NCBI RefSeq assembly: GCF_036507355.1
Contig: NZ_AP027877.1
Direction: 5' to 3' (one strand)
DNA: 64,000 nucleotides
Source: Escherichia coli
Lineage (GTDB): Bacteria; Pseudomonadota; Gammaproteobacteria; Enterobacterales; Enterobacteriaceae
Positions 1 to 9,293 of this stretch are shown one piece after another (the first letter of the stretch is position 1; every line of letters starts with the position of its first letter). The notes under the pieces were generated by a model. That model searched no databases and was not told the origin of the DNA. It saw only the letters and a program-made list of their open reading frames with translations. Made by a program: the position numbers and the translations under genes.

Positions 1-459
1 GTACTGACCGCTGAACAAGCCCTGAAATTAGTGGGTGAGATGTTTGTTTATCACATGCCATTTAACCGCGCATTGGGGATGGAACTGGAGCGTTACGAAA
101 AAGAGTTCGCACAGCTGGCCTTTAAAAATCAGCCAATGATGGTGGGCAACTGGGCGCAAAGCATTTTGCACGGCGGGGTCATTGCGTCGGCGCTGGATGT
201 CGCCGCCGGTCTGGTGTGCGTGGGAAGTACCTTAACCCGCCACGAAACCATCAGTGAAGATGAACTACGCCAGCGGCTATCGCGGATGGGGACCATTGAT
301 CTTCGCGTTGATTATCTGCGCCCAGGCAGGGGCGAGCGTTTTACTGCAACCAGTAGCCTGTTGCGTGCAGGCAATAAAGTCGCCGTCGCCCGCGTTGAAT
401 TACACAATGAAGAACAGCTTTATATTGCCAGTGCCACCGCCACCTATATGGTAGGTTGA
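1..459 (+). CDS. yigI: PaaI-type acyl-CoA thioesterase YigI; 5' end cut by window start (frame open back to nt 1)
   Basis: ORF 31..459 translation matches remembered YigI; no stop in frame between nt 1 and 31; synteny with rarD. Confidence 0.8.
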
Positions 460-510
460 AGACATAAAAGCAGGTAAACTGCTGTTACCAATTAAAAATG
501 AGTATTCCCG

Positions 511-1401
511 ATGGATGCAAAACAAACGCGGCAGGGCGTATTACTCGCTCTTGCCGCTTATTTTATTTGGGGTATAGCCCCAGCGTACTTCAAGTTGATT
601 TACTACGTGCCCGCCGATGAAATCCTGACGCATCGCGTGATCTGGTCGTTTTTCTTTATGGTGGTGCTGATGAGCATTTGCCGCCAGTGGTCCTATTTAA
701 AAACGCTGATTCAGACGCCACAGAAAATTTTTATGCTTGCAGTCTCTGCCGTGCTGATTGGTGGCAACTGGCTACTGTTTATCTGGGCGGTGAACAATCA
801 CCATATGCTGGAAGCGAGCCTTGGTTACTTTATTAACCCGCTGGTGAACATTGTGCTGGGGATGATTTTCCTCGGCGAGCGATTCCGCCGGATGCAATGG
901 CTGGCGGTGATTCTGGCGATATGTGGCGTGTTGGTTCAGCTGTGGACTTTTGGTTCACTGCCGATCATCGCGCTGGGACTGGCATTTAGTTTTGCCTTCT
1001 ACGGTCTGGTACGCAAGAAGATTGCCGTTGAAGCGCAAACCGGCATGTTAATCGAAACTATGTGGCTGCTGCCCGTGGCGGCAATTTACCTGTTTGCTAT
1101 TGCCGATAGCTCAACCAGCCATATGGGGCAAAACCCGATATCGCTGAATTTACTGCTGATCGCTGCCGGTATTGTCACTACCGTACCGCTGTTGTGTTTT
1201 ACTGCAGCTGCGACACGCCTGCGTCTCTCAACGTTAGGCTTTTTCCAGTACATTGGCCCGACGCTGATGTTCCTGCTGGCTGTGACGTTTTATGGTGAAA
1301 AACCGGGTGCCGATAAAATGGTGACTTTCGCCTTTATTTGGGTGGCGCTGGCAATTTTTGTGATGGATGCAATTTATACTCAACGTAGAACGTCCAAATA
1401 A
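511..1401 (+). CDS. rarD: RarD, EamA/DMT-family transporter
   Basis: 296-aa polytopic membrane ORF, expected length and synteny. Confidence 0.9.
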   Translation: MDAKQTRQGVLLALAAYFIWGIAPAYFKLIYYVPADEILTHRVIWSFFFMVVLMSICRQWSYLKTLIQTPQKIFMLAVSAVLIGGNWLLFIWAVNNHHMLEASLGYFINPLVNIVLGMIFLGERFRRMQWLAVILAICGVLVQLWTFGSLPIIALGLAFSFAFYGLVRKKIAVEAQTGMLIETMWLLPVAAIYLFAIADSSTSHMGQNPISLNLLLIAAGIVTTVPLLCFTAAATRLRLSTLGFFQYIGPTLMFLLAVTFYGEKPGADKMVTFAFIWVALAIFVMDAIYTQRRTSK

Positions 1402-1435
1402 AAAATAAATATATTCTGAAAAAATATGCCGACTC

Positions 1436-1813
1436 TTGCATGAGAGTGGGCATATTGCCATGCTGACAGGAGACTCACACAAGGATGTAAAATTTATGTT
1501 ACGTATGTTTATCCCAACATCTAACGGTAAGATTTCCAGACGCCGTTATATATTTTCATTTATTTTAATAAACTTCATTTTTGCCTTTCTTATTATCTTT
1601 TTTAACGATGGAGAAGCAGGTTTTCTTGTTATAGTCTCTACCATCTTACTCCATTATCTCGTCATCAATCTGAATTGCCAACGACTCCGTGATAGTGGTT
1701 TCGTCTATATAAAAACTTATGTTTTTGGTACATTAGCAGTATATATCATCTCTATCATCACAATGATAGCCGAAGATTTTGCCTGTTCAGGCAATGGTTC
1801 GATGATTTTTTAA
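1436..1813 (+). CDS. yigG: small inner-membrane protein, YigG-like
   Basis: 125-aa hydrophobic ORF in the expected position between rarD and yigF; start codon uncertain. Confidence 0.55.
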
Positions 1814-1888
1814 TTTGTTATTTTTCCACTTTCAGTATGCTAATGCTTGCACCTACTGATTCATCAAAACAATAGTTATGGAGTATTT

Positions 1889-2269
1889 ATGAGTAAGGAA
1901 TATATGAACGATGGTTCATTAAGTGAAAAATGGAAATACCGATTTAATTTTTATGATCAACATGGTTTTCCTGGATTCTGGGGGGCAACACCAGAATATA
2001 AAGCAGCATTTAAAGCATTAAAAGTAAGACAACGCTTAACTATTCAAATGAATTTCATTGCTTTCTTCTGTTCCTAGATATATTTATTTGTCCTGGGGTT
2101 ATGGAAAAAAGCAATTATAGTTCTATTACTTGGTATTCTATCTCTATTTGTTGGTGCACTAATTGGCGTTAACATTCTGGGTATTGCCGTAGCAGCCTAT
2201 GTTGCTGTTAACACGAACAAATGGTTCTATGAGAAAGAAGTAAAAGGGTTAAATACCTGGAGCCTTTGA
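1889..2269 (+). pseudogene. yigF: yigF (DUF2628 membrane protein) interrupted by in-frame TAG at 2075-2077
   Basis: Frame from MSKEY (1889) stops at TAG 2075-2077, then stays open in the same frame for 63 more codons to TGA 2267-2269; 62+1+63 = 126 codons, the length I recall for intact YigF. Confidence 0.6.
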
Positions 2270-2275
2270 ATAAGA

Positions 2276-2310
2276 GGTGGCTTAGCCAGGCTAAGCCACC
2301 GCCTTCTTTT
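2276..2310. terminator. hairpin (GGTGGCTTAGCC/GGCTAAGCCACC) plus T-run between convergent yigF and corA 3' remnant
   Basis: perfect inverted repeat followed by CTTCTTTTT on the + strand. Confidence 0.5.
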
Positions 2311-2446
2311 TACAACCAGTTCTTGCGCTTAAAGTACAGATACGGTGCCAGGCCCGCGAGGATCATAAAGATAATCGCGCCTGGGTAGCCGAAACTCCAC
2401 TTCAGTTCTGGCATAAACTCAAAGTTCATGCCATAGCTGGAGGCAA
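2310..2446 (-). pseudogene. detached corA 3'-terminal remnant (last 44 codons incl. GMN motif); left copy of a 137-bp imperfect direct repeat
   Basis: ORF 2310..2513 ends ...[44 protein letters not shown], identical in amino acids to the C-terminus of full corA at 4017..; upstream part of the ORF is unrelated or decayed. Confidence 0.7.
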
Positions 2447-2637
2447 TCCGCGTAGGAAAAAGTTTCCTAATCGGTAAATTCAACATATTGTTATTAACAA
2501 TGGGCAAAACCAATCAATAACGAGATTCCCTTCGGAATGTAATAAAAATGTGAAGTGTACTTCTTTTTTAAAATTTTTTATCCTAGCATTTGTTCTCAAA
2601 TTGATATTGAGCTTAAATATAACCAAGGAAAATGTAA

Positions 2638-3345
2638 ATGAATAACACATTACTTCCATCAATTAATATTCCCTGTACACTTTTCGAAACTATTAGTTTA
2701 TTTGATGATTATTCTGCTGATGATATGCAATATGGTGATATGGTAGAACAAGATTTTCTCTCACTCGGCCTAAGCGATATCTCAGCAAAAGTTGATCCTT
2801 ACAGACTTATTAAATACCATTTCCCTGGCCCAGGTTCTGTTAATGTTGTTTTTAGTGCCTCAAGTTCCGGAACAAAAATATCACAACGTGAATGCACTGA
2901 TATTTTATTTGCAGAAATGAAAGAACTAGCAAAAAATTTTTCCTTTTTTGGACAATATAAAACACTTATCGAAGATCTGATTGAACATTTTAGATATGGA
3001 AATGGCAGCAATTTTCATAGCCAACAATTAAATTTATCTTTTCATGAAAAGATAAATAAATATGGTTATAATAGTCCAATACGAATAATCAAAGAATGTA
3101 TCGAAAATGGCATTAATTCAACTCCCTCGACAGGATACCAACCTCTTATCCTGCAAAGCATTAAAACCAAATTACTTTCATCAAGACTAAATAAATTTAA
3201 TGACTTCGAGGACAGTTTTAATGGCTTAGGAATCAGTATTCATGATATTTCAGCTCAAAAAAATATCTCTTTTAAGCTTTCAAAAATACGCTATAGGGTG
3301 GAGTGCGACAATTCATTTTGTAGCACAGGACCACTTCGGTCTTGA
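2638..3345 (+). CDS. hypothetical protein, AT-rich cassette gene A; probably frameshifted, C-terminus may continue in +1 frame to 3487
   Basis: 235-aa ORF with AAGGA RBS ~8 nt upstream; ~30% GC; overlapping +1-frame ORF 3242..3487 ends in an ATGA overlap with gene B. Confidence 0.5.
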   Translation: MNNTLLPSINIPCTLFETISLFDDYSADDMQYGDMVEQDFLSLGLSDISAKVDPYRLIKYHFPGPGSVNVVFSASSSGTKISQRECTDILFAEMKELAKNFSFFGQYKTLIEDLIEHFRYGNGSNFHSQQLNLSFHEKINKYGYNSPIRIIKECIENGINSTPSTGYQPLILQSIKTKLLSSRLNKFNDFEDSFNGLGISIHDISAQKNISFKLSKIRYRVECDNSFCSTGPLRS

Positions 3346-3483
3346 TGTAACTGATATCAAAAACAAGACTTACAGCAAATATAGATTTTTTCGCATATGG
3401 TTCTTTTTACAACGGCATAAAGGCTTTGCTTTCAAACCTTTTTTCACCAATTTTAACACTATCGAAAGAATCGAAAATTATCT

Positions 3484-3975
3484 ATGAAAAGCAAACGCCA
3501 GAAAATTATATTATGTTTATTTCTTCTATGCTGTATCTATAATTTATGGACATTGCGTCCTGTACAGATTTTGTATACATACTCTGATGCTGGCAATTCA
3601 GTCTTTCTGGTCGTTGATCATCTGCCATGGACTGACAGCGATAAAATAAATTGGTATCTGAAGCATCAGAATGAAATTAAAAATCAACATCCCCTACCAG
3701 AAGGTAGTTGGCATACCTGGTATGTCATTGATATCGGTAATGGCTTCACTGACTATAAAAAATATATCGAAGGGCCGTATGAAGATCTCTACTGTTTCCC
3801 GACAATTAAGAGCAATGATAATTGCATCGTGAAAAATTACTTAATGGTTATTAATGAATACCCTTATCGTAACACTCATATTGGTATTAACGATTTTACT
3901 GAGTATCAATTAACACAAGAAAATAAAATAGAGCGAGTTTTCAATCCGCATGACTTTAAAAAAGACAATTTTTAG
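3484..3975 (+). CDS. small protein with N-terminal hydrophobic anchor/signal, cassette gene B
   Basis: 163-aa ORF, N-terminus KIILCLFLLCCIYNLW is hydrophobic; start overlaps upstream frame by ATGA; AT-rich. Confidence 0.55.
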   Translation: MKSKRQKIILCLFLLCCIYNLWTLRPVQILYTYSDAGNSVFLVVDHLPWTDSDKINWYLKHQNEIKNQHPLPEGSWHTWYVIDIGNGFTDYKKYIEGPYEDLYCFPTIKSNDNCIVKNYLMVINEYPYRNTHIGINDFTEYQLTQENKIERVFNPHDFKKDNF

Positions 3976-3980
3976 AAATA

Positions 3981-4010
3981 AGCCGGATAAAAAAATAGCT
4001 TTATCCGGCA
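3981..4010. repeat. REP-like palindromic hairpin (GCCGGATAAA...TTTATCCGGC) between cassette gene B and corA stop
   Basis: 10-bp inverted repeat seen directly; motif resembles E. coli REP units. Confidence 0.4.
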
Positions 4011-4016
4011 CTCATA

Positions 4017-4967
4017 TTACAACCAGTTCTTCCGCTTAAAGTACAGATACGGTGCCAGGCCCGCGAGGATCATAAAGATAATCGCGCCTGGGTAGCCGAA
4101 ACTCCACTTCAGTTCTGGCATAAACTCAAAGTTCATCCCGTAGCTGGAAGCAACCAGCGTTGGCGGCAGGAACACGACGGATACCACCGAGAAAATTTTG
4201 ATGATGCGGTTCTGCTCGATGTTGATAAAACCCATTGCCGCCTGCATCAGGAAGTTCACCTTCTGGAACAGGGATTCGTTATGCGGCAGCAGGGATTCGA
4301 TATCTCGCAGGATTTCACGCGCCTGCTCCAGTTGCCCACCCGGTAAGCGTGCTTTACGTACCAGGAAGTTGAGAGCGCGCTGGGTATCCATCAGACACAG
4401 GCGAACTTTCCAGCCGATATCTTCCAGTTCCGCCAGAGTGGAGAGCGCCTCGTCGTACTCATCGCCCTGATGCCCTTCCATAATCACCCGGCTCAATTGC
4501 TCCAGGTCGCTATAGATATTTTCAATTTCATCTGCCAACTGTTCGATTTTGGTTTCGAACAAATCCAGCAGCAACTCGTAGGCGTTACCGTCTACCATCG
4601 ACTGGCTACGGGCACGCATACGATATAGACGAAAAGCGGGCAGTTCACGCTCACGCAGAGTAAACAGACGACCATCACGGATGGTAAATGCCACAGTGGA
4701 GTTACCGGCGTGATCTTCCGCATCTTCAAAGAAGAAGAAGGAGTGAATATGCAGGCCGTCATCGTCTTCAAAGAAACGTGCCGATGCTTCGATGTCTTCC
4801 AGTTCCGGGCGGGTTGCCAGGCTCTGGCCAAGTTCAGATTGTACGCGCAGTCGCTCGTCGTCGTCCGGTTCGACAAGATCAATCCATACTGCATTTACAA
4901 GGGGTTGTGACTCTTCGACTTCCAGCCGGGTCAGTCGGTTATTTTCCAGTTGAAATGCGCTCAGCAT
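4017..4967 (-). CDS. corA: Mg2+/Co2+ transporter CorA
   Basis: ORF 4017..4982; native start [10 protein letters not shown] gives 316 aa; GMN motif and two C-terminal TM segments present. Confidence 0.95.
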
Positions 4968-5336
4968 GACCGGGACTCCCAATGCTTAAAATATCGGACA
5001 GTTCGGTGGGCACACAGAAACAAATTGGGTTTCAGACCATTAAACAGCCTGACTCAGCGCGACGGGAAAAATTGAGGTCGCTGACAACCGCTAAGGCTAT
5101 CAGCAAAAAGGGATAGCCTTAGGAGTTGATCCTGGATGACAGGATAGTGAGCCAGTATCTACTGGGTGTGTCCAAGGCGAATGTCCTCTTAGAGTGATCG
5201 TGCGCGCATGTTACGCCAGCAAAATTTTGCCGTCAACACGCAACAGAACACCACAGAACAATAGTTGAACTTCGCGCTTTTTGGTACTCGTCAAGGTCGC
5301 TAACAGGATAAAAAAATCCCACATCCAGGACCTATA

Positions 5337-6101
5337 ATGGCGCATCGGCTACTCATTGGTAAAGGAATGATCACCTTGAATCTCAAACGGATTTTTCTCG
5401 CCCTCACCTTACTTCCCTTGTTTGTTGTTGCCGCTGATGATTGCGCACTCTCAGATCCGACGCTGACCGTACAGGCGTATACCGTTAATCCTCAAACAGA
5501 GCGGGTGAAAATGTACTGGCAAAAAGCCAATGGCGAAGCGTGGGGAACTTTACATGCTCTGCTGGCGGATATGAATAGTCAGGGTCAGGTGCAGATGGCG
5601 ATGAACGGCGGCATCTATGATGAAAGCTATACGCCGCTCGGTTTGTACATCGAAAACGGTCAGCAGAAGGTGGCGTTAAATCTCGCTTCAGGTGAAGGGA
5701 ATTTCTTTATCCGTCCTGGCGGCGTGTTTTATGTCGCGGGAGATAAAGTCGGCATCGTTCGTCTGGATGCCTTCAAAACCAGTAAAGAGATTCAGTTTGC
5801 GGTGCAGTCAGGGCCAATGTTGATGGAAAACAGTGTAATTAATCCGCGTATTCATCCCAACGTCGCCTCACGTAAAATTCGTAACGGTGTTGGGATTAAT
5901 AAACATGGGAATGCCGTGTTTTTGTTGAGCCAGCAGGCGACAAATTTTTATGATTTTGCCTGTTATGCCAAAGCGAAACTGAACGTTGAGCAGCTGCTTT
6001 ATCTTGATGGCACGATTTCACATATGTATATGAAAGGCGGGGCAATCCCGTGGCAACGCTATCCTTTTGTCACCATGATTTCCGTCGAGCGGAAAGGTTA
6101 A
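5337..6101 (+). CDS. yigE: DUF2233-family protein YigE
   Basis: 254-aa ORF with signal-like N-terminus; expected position between corA and uvrD. Confidence 0.8.
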   Translation: MAHRLLIGKGMITLNLKRIFLALTLLPLFVVAADDCALSDPTLTVQAYTVNPQTERVKMYWQKANGEAWGTLHALLADMNSQGQVQMAMNGGIYDESYTPLGLYIENGQQKVALNLASGEGNFFIRPGGVFYVAGDKVGIVRLDAFKTSKEIQFAVQSGPMLMENSVINPRIHPNVASRKIRNGVGINKHGNAVFLLSQQATNFYDFACYAKAKLNVEQLLYLDGTISHMYMKGGAIPWQRYPFVTMISVERKG

Positions 6102-7130: not shown

Positions 7131-9293
7131 TTATACCGTCTCCAGCCGGGCGTATGCCGCCACCAGCCATTTAATACCCTGGCCCTGGAATGCCACCTGC
7201 AAACGGCTATGCTCGCCGCTGCCTTCCATATTGACGATAGTGCCTTCACCAAACTTAGCGTGGCGTACACGCTGGCCGAGCTTGTAGCCGCTGTCGTTCT
7301 CGACCATCGGCGTACCCATACGCTGATGGCTGACCGGGCGGCTTACCGTGGCGCGCAGGCGCACCTCTTCCACACACTCTTCCGGCAACTCACCGATAAA
7401 GCGCGACGGGCGATGGTAAACCTCTTTGCCATACAGACGGCGAGTTTCCGCGTAGGTCAGCGTCAGTTTCTGCATCGCGCGGGTTACGCCAACGTAGGCC
7501 AGACGGCGTTCTTCTTCCAGACGACCGCCTTCATCCAGCGACATCTGGCTTGGGAACATGCCCTCTTCCATACCGACGATAAACACCTGCGGGAACTCCA
7601 GCCCTTTCGCCGAGTGTAGCGTCATCAACTGCACCGCGTCCTGCCAGGTATCCGCCTGCCCCTCGCCCGCTTCCAGCGCCGCATGGGAGAGGAATGCCTG
7701 CAGCGGCATTAAATCTTCGTCTTCTTCGTTGTAGCTGAACTGGCGCGTTGCCGTCACCAGTTCCTCCAGGTTTTCGATACGCGTCTGACCTTTTTCGCCC
7801 TTCTCCTGCTCGTACATGGTGCGCAGGCCGGAGTCTTTAATTACCCGGTCAGTCTGTACATGCAGCGGCATATCGGCAGTTTCCTGCGCTAAGGCGTCGA
7901 TCAGTTCCATAAACCGCTGTAAGGCGCTGGCAGCACGTCCGGCGAGGGCTTTTTCCTGCAACAGTTCACGACATGCCTGCCAGAGTGTTAACTGGCGATC
8001 GCGCGATGTCTGACGTACCACGTCCAGCGTCCGGTCACCAATACCCCGCGTTGGCGTATTCACCACACGCTCAAAGGCCGCGTCGTCGTTGCGGTTGGCA
8101 ATCAGGCGCAGATACGAGAGCGCATCTTTGATTTCCTGGCGTTCGAAGAAGCGCATCCCGCCGTAAATACGGTACGGCATACTGGCCTGCAATAACGCCT
8201 CTTCGAGCACCCGCGACTGGGCGTTGCTGCGGTAGAGAATGGCGCACTCGGCAAGCGCTCCGCCGTTGTCCTGCCAGGTTTTGATGCGGTTAACCACAAA
8301 ACGCGCTTCATCGAGTTCGTTAAAAGCGCAATAGAGGGAAATAGGCTCACCGTCCGCGCCATCGGTCCACAGTTTTTTACCCAGACGCCCGTTATTGTTT
8401 TCAATCAGGGCGTTAGCGGCGCTCAGAATATTGCTGGTAGAGCGGTAGTTTTGCTCCAGACGAATAGTTTCAGCACCGGGGAAATCATTGAGGAAACGCT
8501 GAATATTCTCTACCTGCGCCCCGCGCCAGCCGTAGATTGACTGGTCGTCATCACCGACGATCATCACTTTGCCGGTGTCGCCCGCCAGCAGGCGGATCCA
8601 CGCGTACTGAATGTTGTTGGTATCCTGGAATTCGTCCACCAGGATATTGGTAAAACGTTCGCGGTAGTGTTGCAGGATATGCGGCTTGTTAAGCCACAGT
8701 TCGTGGGCGCGCAGCAGCAGCTCGGCGAAATCCACCAGACCCGCGCGGTCACACGCTTCCTGATACGCCTGATACACCTTCTGCCAGGTCTGCTCCACCG
8801 GATTACCGTAGCTTTGAATATGATGCGGACGTAAGCCTTCATCTTTCTGGCTGTTGATGTACCACATTGCCTGGCGCGGCGGCCACTGCTTCTCGTCGAG
8901 GTTCATCGCCTTGATCAAACGCTTAAGCAGGCGCAGCTGGTCTTCACTGTCGAGGATCTGGAAATCCTGCGGCAGATTGGCGTCCATATGGTGCGCACGC
9001 AGCAGGCGGTGCGCCAGCCCGTGGAAGGTGCCTACCCACATGCCGCCCTGGCTGGTGCCCATCAGTTGCCCGATACGATGACGCATTTCCGCCGCCGCTT
9101 TGTTGGTAAACGTCATCGCCATAATCGAGTATGGCGAGCAGTTTTCCACGCTCATCAGCCAGGCGATACGATGCACCAGTACGCGCGTCTTACCACTGCC
9201 CGCGCCCGCCAGCACCAGAAGGTTGCTGCGTGGCGCGGCCACCGCTTCGCGCTGTTTGTCATTAAGGCTGTCGAGCAGGTAAGAAACGTCCAT
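7131..9293 (-). CDS. uvrD: DNA helicase II UvrD
   Basis: ORF 7131..9482 contains MDVSYLLDSLNDKQREAV start (ATG at 9293) and Walker A GAGSGKT; 720 aa. Confidence 0.95.
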   Translation of the reverse strand: MDVSYLLDSLNDKQREAVAAPRSNLLVLAGAGSGKTRVLVHRIAWLMSVENCSPYSIMAMTFTNKAAAEMRHRIGQLMGTSQGGMWVGTFHGLAHRLLRAHHMDANLPQDFQILDSEDQLRLLKRLIKAMNLDEKQWPPRQAMWYINSQKDEGLRPHHIQSYGNPVEQTWQKVYQAYQEACDRAGLVDFAELLLRAHELWLNKPHILQHYRERFTNILVDEFQDTNNIQYAWIRLLAGDTGKVMIVGDDDQSIYGWRGAQVENIQRFLNDFPGAETIRLEQNYRSTSNILSAANALIENNNGRLGKKLWTDGADGEPISLYCAFNELDEARFVVNRIKTWQDNGGALAECAILYRSNAQSRVLEEALLQASMPYRIYGGMRFFERQEIKDALSYLRLIANRNDDAAFERVVNTPTRGIGDRTLDVVRQTSRDRQLTLWQACRELLQEKALAGRAASALQRFMELIDALAQETADMPLHVQTDRVIKDSGLRTMYEQEKGEKGQTRIENLEELVTATRQFSYNEEDEDLMPLQAFLSHAALEAGEGQADTWQDAVQLMTLHSAKGLEFPQVFIVGMEEGMFPSQMSLDEGGRLEEERRLAYVGVTRAMQKLTLTYAETRRLYGKEVYHRPSRFIGELPEECVEEVRLRATVSRPVSHQRMGTPMVENDSGYKLGQRVRHAKFGEGTIVNMEGSGEHSRLQVAFQGQGIKWLVAAYARLETV

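Follow-up and report, generated by a model that had tools for sequence, protein, structure and literature searches.

The stretch of Escherichia coli DNA analysed here (the window; 64,000 nucleotides of contig NZ_AP027877.1, assembly GCF_036507355.1) carries, in order, yigI, rarD, yigG, yigF, a terminator, a short open reading frame (ORF) containing a remnant of corA, an AT-rich spacer, a DUF3289 gene, a DUF943 gene, a further terminator, and corA itself. The segment from the spacer through the second terminator forms a 1.56-kb island bracketed by a 147-bp repeat, such that the insert together with one repeat copy spans 1707 bp from start to start. The features of the locus are as follows:

2276-2300: bidirectional terminator hairpin of the native flank, lying downstream of the remnant and with the sequence found after intact corA in K-12-like genomes
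2310-2513, minus strand: 67-codon ORF (67 aa) with a TTG start right after a TGA, comprising the remnant plus 19 read-through codons
2310-2456, minus strand: corA' remnant, the left copy of the 147-bp direct repeat, with a Pfam CorA match and a RefSeq annotation
2430-2456, minus strand: inner edge of the remnant, diverged to 21/27 identity with the intact copy and common to all remnants examined
2457-2474: junction filler of 18 nt, neither corA-like nor present in remnant-less loci of type D (defined below)
2475-2637, plus strand: island spacer upstream of the DUF3289 gene, aligning to type D locus L003 from 2474 on
2638-3487, plus strand: DUF3289/YPO3983-family gene (colicin-M-like toxin), a pseudogene with Pfam matches on both halves
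3484-3975, plus strand: DUF943 gene (cognate immunity protein), intact (Pfam E = 3.4e-27)
3982-4009, minus strand: island-type terminator hairpin, directly after the stop of intact corA
4017-4163, minus strand: right-hand repeat copy, formed by the 3' end of intact corA (sequence comparison)
4017-4967, minus strand: intact corA, 316 aa (ORF listing), corresponding to WP_000947159.1 in E. coli loci

The ORF lies exactly where a first-pass annotation of the window had described it (2310-2513, minus strand, 67 aa, by the ORF listing), with intact corA 1.7 kb to its right, and the description of it as carrying a detached copy of the corA 3' end is borne out by the direct repeat. The two copies, 2310-2456 and 4017-4163, stand in direct orientation and are identical at 140 of 147 positions (95%), the right one being continuous with the intact gene, and the C-terminal 44 residues of the ORF are those of intact CorA without a single difference. 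Pfam CorA (PF01544) aligns residues 20-63 of the ORF with profile positions 246-292, the last stretch of its 292 (E = 8.6e-13); from this match and the extent of the homology, the corA-derived part amounts to the last 48 codons plus the stop—the end of TM1, the YGMN loop, TM2, and the basic C-terminus. The GMN motif and the last transmembrane helix are indeed retained in the fragment, with TM1 cut to about seven residues (PTRIASS). Homology is confined to 147 bp, and the fragment has neither the length of a CorA protein (about 316 aa) nor the N-terminal cytoplasmic domain and stalk helix.

The annotation had further set apart 23 upstream codons as faintly resembling, and diverged from, the CorA sequence that precedes the GMN loop. 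The last four of these (PTRI) do correspond to corA, matching PTLV with two substitutions, so that the corA-derived part begins at codon 20 (window position 2456) rather than codon 24, four codons further upstream in the ORF, and only 19 codons are foreign. Those 19 are mostly not CorA-like at all: the island spacer, present in the remnant-less locus L003, is the source of codons 1-13 (2475-2513), and codons 14-19 are junction sequence with a source not traced to corA. Compared with corA in register, codons 1-19 match at 20 of 57 nt against a shuffled mean of 14.5, and their best ungapped match anywhere in corA (28/57) was equalled by 14 of 500 shuffles. Homology of these codons to corA, which is marginal by this measure, was overruled because 2475-2513 is island spacer found in loci that have no remnant; the read-through of 19 codons into the AT-rich spacer is a frame left open by chance. 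For the junction filler, an origin in yigG found no support, as the yigG segment abutting the same point in type D loci matches at 10 of 17 positions, a resemblance that is not significant because the sequence is AT-rich. A search for a donor with the exact left-end sequence CCGATTAGGAAACTTTTT (2457-2474) found none.

The DUF3289 and DUF943 ORFs are the island's only cargo, and the profile scores identify them as an adjacent pair of this kind—179.1 and 91 bits to PF11692 for the two frameshifted halves of the first and 95.3 bits to PF06092 for the second, all above the gathering score. DUF3289 is reported to be a colicin-M-like toxin with DUF943 as its immunity partner, and a member of the family has been found toxic in the periplasm and rescued by DUF943 (PMC11148199). 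The window's DUF3289 frame is broken by one additional A in an A-run at about 3257-3264. Searching with CorA by tblastn recovered no further corA homology inside the island, and no Rfam match above noise was found in 1400-5400. Intact corA in the window now ends in flanking sequence supplied by the island; island-type flank also lies 3' of corA in type D loci and in plasmid R27, and the flank in Salmonella arizonae is similar.

Two observations concern the condition of the window more generally. Three adjacent accessory genes are inactivated, namely DUF3289, yigG (1496-1876; frameshifted by loss of one T near 1806), and yigF (1889-2269; W63 TGG to TAG at 2075-2077), with DUF943 and corA intact, and the best match among complete E. 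coli genomes over 1400-5100 is only 98.6% identical; together these suggest a pseudogene-rich lineage, possibly Shigella-like. Separately, the window contains a 116-nt direct repeat (7529-7644 and 48507-48622, 72% identity, 41 kb apart), the left copy of which lies inside a gene syntenic with uvrD, and which is probably conserved helicase-motif coding sequence common to UvrD and a paralogue such as Rep.

Across complete E. coli genomes, the junction between remnant and island was present in 1706 of 5426. The rarD-corA interval (window 1402-4016) takes at least six structural forms, as judged from loci L001-L004, L014-L017, and L019-L021:

Type A: yigG-yigF-corA, K-12-like (L004)
Type B: yigG-yigF-corA'-island-corA, the form in the window (301 genomes)
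Type C: a different flank of small membrane proteins, then corA'-island-corA, in O157:H7 and many others
Type D: a 30-codon yigG stub joined to the island at 2474/2475, with no remnant (about 929 genomes, a count inferred from an island identity of 80-90% together with five example rows)
Type E: type C minus the island (24 genomes)
Type F: nothing between rarD and corA (L017)

Uninterrupted counterparts exist for both flanks of remnant-bearing loci, with type A (L004) matching the flank of the window and type E matching the O157-type flank. Aligned to L004, window positions 1-2456 form one block and 4017-6000 another; locus alignments of this kind uphold the proposal that the corA copy marks the left boundary of an inserted segment. 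The remnant sits at the original downstream junction of corA, since the sequence next to it is the terminator found after intact corA in K-12-like genomes.

The toxin and immunity pair also occurs at this position without any repeat. Salmonella enterica subsp. arizonae and diarizonae have the order rarD-DUF3289-DUF943-corA with no remnant, the two pairs sharing about 65% protein identity with those of E. coli and a similar hairpin following corA; searching genome contigs with the DUF3289 protein gave nine loci, of which only these have a remnant-less pair next to corA. Because Salmonella arizonae and diarizonae share the position without the remnant, residence of the cassette behind corA is either old or repeatedly exchanged. 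The corA repeat is instead confined to one cassette lineage (types B and C), and the fact that the six remnants examined share the junction and the inner-edge differences points to a single origin. From 2475 on, the spacer is about 95% conserved in remnant-less loci.

Several further features of individual loci were noted. The yigG/yigF allele of L016 is about 89% identical to the common one. In the O157-type locus L002, an unannotated ORF of 128 aa (5590-5976, plus strand) lies just left of the remnant and is a distant relative of YigG (30% identity over 74 aa, pairwise E = 7e-5); neither of the two flank ORFs of O157-type loci gave a Pfam match. Two contigs labelled as other organisms, L005 (CASFSC010000051.1, "uncultured Alistipes sp.") and L006 (USQA01000181.1, "uncultured Clostridium sp."), contain the rarD-corA'-island-corA arrangement of E. 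coli (protein identity about 98%) and are almost certainly mis-binned Escherichia contigs in metagenome-assembled genomes.

The first-pass annotation had also reported a gradient of decay along the remnant, and this is real: identity to intact corA falls step-wise from 119/120 over 2310-2429 to 21/27 over 2430-2456, and to chance level further in. The annotation had left two sources for the copy to be told apart by alignment, a decayed native copy and a foreign corA allele, and the alignments favour an old Escherichia-type allele that has since drifted, and not a Salmonella-like one. The differences of the inner 27 bp from ordinary E. coli corA, a clustering based on six differences only, are CCT, C[G/C][G/T], ATT, GCC/GCT, TAT, and GGC. 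The GCC/GCT site reflects ordinary polymorphism. The TAT and GGC states are both silent and are found together in the complete corA carried by plasmid R27; TAT additionally appears in the type E strain 2014C-3011, again in a full-length corA, and in Salmonella. The other inner-edge differences are private to remnants, and one of these codons varies among the remnants themselves (CGG, CGT, or CCG, versus CTG in corA). Since TAT and GGC are natural in full-length corA and the rest are private, our reading of the alignments is that the remnant probably represents an old Escherichia-type corA allele with some pseudogene drift. Salmonella was rejected as the source, the corA 3' ends of arizonae and diarizonae differing from the remnant at many positions.

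The outer part of the remnant may have a different history. In the L005 and L006 remnants, which appear less homogenised, 7 of the 120 outer positions differ from E. coli corA, mostly synonymously and in several cases matching states of other Escherichia alleles, compared with one or two in the remnants of the window and of O157. In many strains, the window's included, these outer 120 bp would accordingly have been replaced with ordinary E. coli corA sequence through recombination or gene conversion; the inner edge would not be convertible because homology stops there. For the innermost 15 bp, an alternative is imperfect microhomology used by an illegitimate join. Capture of chromosomal sequence from this region was also seen on IncHI-type plasmids (R27, pHCM1 of S. 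Typhi CT18, and others among the 61 plasmid records matched). The captured block holds corA and ysgD along with roughly the last 98 bp of the island, which cover its terminator and the 3' end of DUF943; in R27, window positions 3919-5617 correspond to 2501-4199 of NC_002305 (L018) at 98.6% identity, and the plasmid corA has the TAT and GGC states of the remnant inner edge together with the island-type downstream flank.

How might such a structure arise? The 1.56-kb segment—spacer, DUF3289, DUF943, and its own terminator—now separates corA from its old flank (native terminator, yigF, and yigG), where the last 147 bp of a corA copy are stranded; it is because this 3' end was left at the old flank that the island is bracketed by a direct repeat. 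Two routes to this outcome can be inferred. A circular or looped molecule bearing the cassette and a corA 3' fragment could have integrated by one homologous crossover (Campbell-type); alternatively, the island could have been imported along with corA from an island-bearing donor through one homologous crossover and one illegitimate join, the latter falling around codon 269 of the recipient corA. The 27-bp inner edge would then stem either from the old corA allele or from imperfect microhomology where the illegitimate join took place.

The geometry of the locus invites a more specialised explanation, namely that the remnant is half of an att-like site of an integrase-driven element that targets the corA 3' end and brings a replacement for it, with the island as its residue. 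The arrangement is exactly of the form B-O-P' ... P-O-B': the repeats are direct, the intact gene ends in the flank and terminator of the island, the displaced 3' end lies on the far side, and intact sites are found in island-free genomes. The island, however, encodes no integrase, excisionase, or other recombinase and has no room for one, and both E. coli type D and Salmonella arizonae and diarizonae carry the pair between rarD and corA with no repeat; for these two reasons, we regard an integrase-driven event as unlikely. Among the matches listed, moreover, there was no phage-like or plasmid copy of the island, the two full-length island matches in the plasmid search falling on replicon-sized records of 1.0 Mb and 4.8 Mb, and a 147-bp repeat with a ragged, diverged inner edge fits homologous or illegitimate recombination better than it fits a core site. 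Less probable still, to the point that we give it almost no weight, is that the remnant is the end of a formerly complete tandem duplicate of corA, the rest of which has eroded past recognition. The fall in identity toward the inner edge would be expected of such a duplicate, as would the slight excess of codons 1-19 over the shuffled mean when read in register. Yet the drop is abrupt, from 78% to chance within a few bases, sequence from 2475 onward is a DUF3289 spacer conserved in loci in which no remnant is ever seen, and the tblastn search found nothing more of CorA in the island. Homologous or illegitimate recombination with an incoming cassette remains the reading that we prefer.

A third possibility concerns function rather than origin. 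The first-pass annotation had raised the prospect that the fragment, if expressed, might interfere with CorA pentamers, and a fuller version of this idea holds that the ORF, or a product starting from the GMN methionine, is expressed as a small protein that inserts into the membrane beside CorA and perturbs or regulates its pentamer. None of the six remnants examined has a break in the frame, which retains the periplasmic loop, TM2, the basic C-terminus, and, in five of the six, YGMN, and the Pfam CorA match is significant. Against this, no promoter-like site was found upstream of the ORF (minus strand, in the spacer), the region as a whole containing five promoter-like matches versus 7.9 expected from shuffles. 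The TTG start directly follows a stop and is not preceded by a well-spaced Shine-Dalgarno sequence, the nearest purine-rich stretch (AAGGGA) being about 14-19 nt upstream, and codon 10, the sole ATG ahead of the GMN methionine, reads ATA in O157. Across the 48 corA codons, the six remnants carry three different amino-acid changes—R22P, Y27D (YGMN to DGMN, in L015), and an Ala-to-Thr change in TM2—whereas full-length CorA is represented by a single accession, WP_000947159.1, in every chromosomal E. coli locus examined; in this small sample of six, purifying selection on the remnant was not evident. The CorA pentamer is held together by the stalk and cytoplasmic domain. A fragment with some seven residues of TM1 and neither of those parts would lack what holds the pentamer together. 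Interference with CorA is left without support by the combination of no promoter-like site, a poor start, loss of the ATG in O157, and mutation of YGMN, and as an account of the ORF we consider it very improbable. We are correspondingly confident, on the strength of these comparisons, that the ORF at 2310-2513 is most probably a non-functional scar and not a gene; that it should instead yield, at a low level, a single-TM microprotein with the CorA selectivity loop that modulates CorA in about 31% of E. coli would be a considerable surprise.

The remnant has one likely activity, which is to provide a substrate for homologous recombination. Deletion between the two repeat copies would remove the island and regenerate an intact, chimeric corA, and 24 genomes have the O157-type flank directly behind intact corA with no island. 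Seven of these, from the O157:H7 lineage, match the junction of strain NZRM3614 at 100% (four labelled O157:H7 and three unlabelled, NZRM3614 among them), and the remaining type E genomes fall into three other sequence classes. When NZRM3614 is compared with an O157 genome, the two are near-identical on both sides of the missing island (2 and 8 mismatches in 3.6 kb), with the mismatches mostly within the repeat. Its corA 3' end is chimeric: the inner stretch has the states of the full copy (GCT, TAC GGG), and the distal stretch and the flank are those of the remnant (CGC, CTG). As read from these diagnostic sites, it appears to be the very product expected of repeat-by-repeat deletion. Parsimony favours repeated loss of the island as the path from type C to type E, given the numbers of genomes (24 versus 1706) and the clonality of O157:H7. 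We give about even odds to the broader proposal that the corA 3' end is a recurrent site of cassette exchange at which the repeat makes carriage of the toxin and immunity genes reversible without damage to corA; that proposal is in any case more likely than a CorA-modulating microprotein.

In E. coli K-12, e14 and phage 21 insert at the 3' end of icd and leave icdC-type pseudogene fragments. The corA locus resembles that system in that the target gene receives a new 3' end and terminator from the insert, its original 3' end survives beyond the insert as a short pseudogene still in frame, and the two direct-repeat copies permit clean removal. Unlike e14, however, the corA island is a two-gene cassette of 1.56 kb with no integrase or other mobility gene, the same cassette occurs here free of repeats (E. 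coli type D, Salmonella arizonae), and the repeat has a ragged inner edge rather than a defined core. A second parallel is with polymorphic-toxin loci, in which DNA arriving from outside recombines at a conserved anchor upstream, so that the former 3' end is displaced downstream and persists there as a fragment, with the distinction that the anchor and the displaced fragment in the window belong to a housekeeping transporter gene and not to a toxin gene. The cargo itself resembles the orphan DUF3289/DUF943 cassettes described as candidate T6SS effector and immunity pairs (PMC11148199), sharing their toxin-then-immunity order and overlapping stop and start, but no T6SS genes adjoin it in the stretch examined, its toxin gene is frameshifted with the immunity gene intact, and the corA junction is not described in that work. 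In Trabulsiella guamensis (L011 6001-10451) and in locus L009 (7365-7918), DUF3289/DUF943 genes form tandem arrays that include DUF3289 3' fragments followed by further DUF943 genes, the pattern of orphan toxin tips and immunity genes known from polymorphic-toxin loci.

The remnant is in itself ordinary: it is already annotated as a pseudogene in RefSeq, and the cargo is already in the literature, though a literature search on this corA junction found nothing relevant. In each of the three remnant-bearing loci examined that carry annotation (L001, L002, and L015), the RefSeq/PGAP pipeline labels the same 147 bp [quoted passage not shown]. These entries (e.g., IMQ59_RS23220, F4V39_RS15935, and AC9VUB_RS14985) have the same junction and neighbourhood as the window, from which they differ by a few bases and in that the accessory genes flanking the window's copy are inactivated. 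Counts of genes and of CorA paralogues should accordingly leave the fragment out. It has instead a modest value as a marker that dates and delimits the arrival of a toxin and immunity cassette behind a transporter gene of essential function, within a rarD-corA interval that is a hypervariable cassette site in both E. coli and Salmonella. The repeat supplies the homology for clean loss of the cassette, and such loss could bear on strain-to-strain competition phenotypes and on typing within O157:H7.
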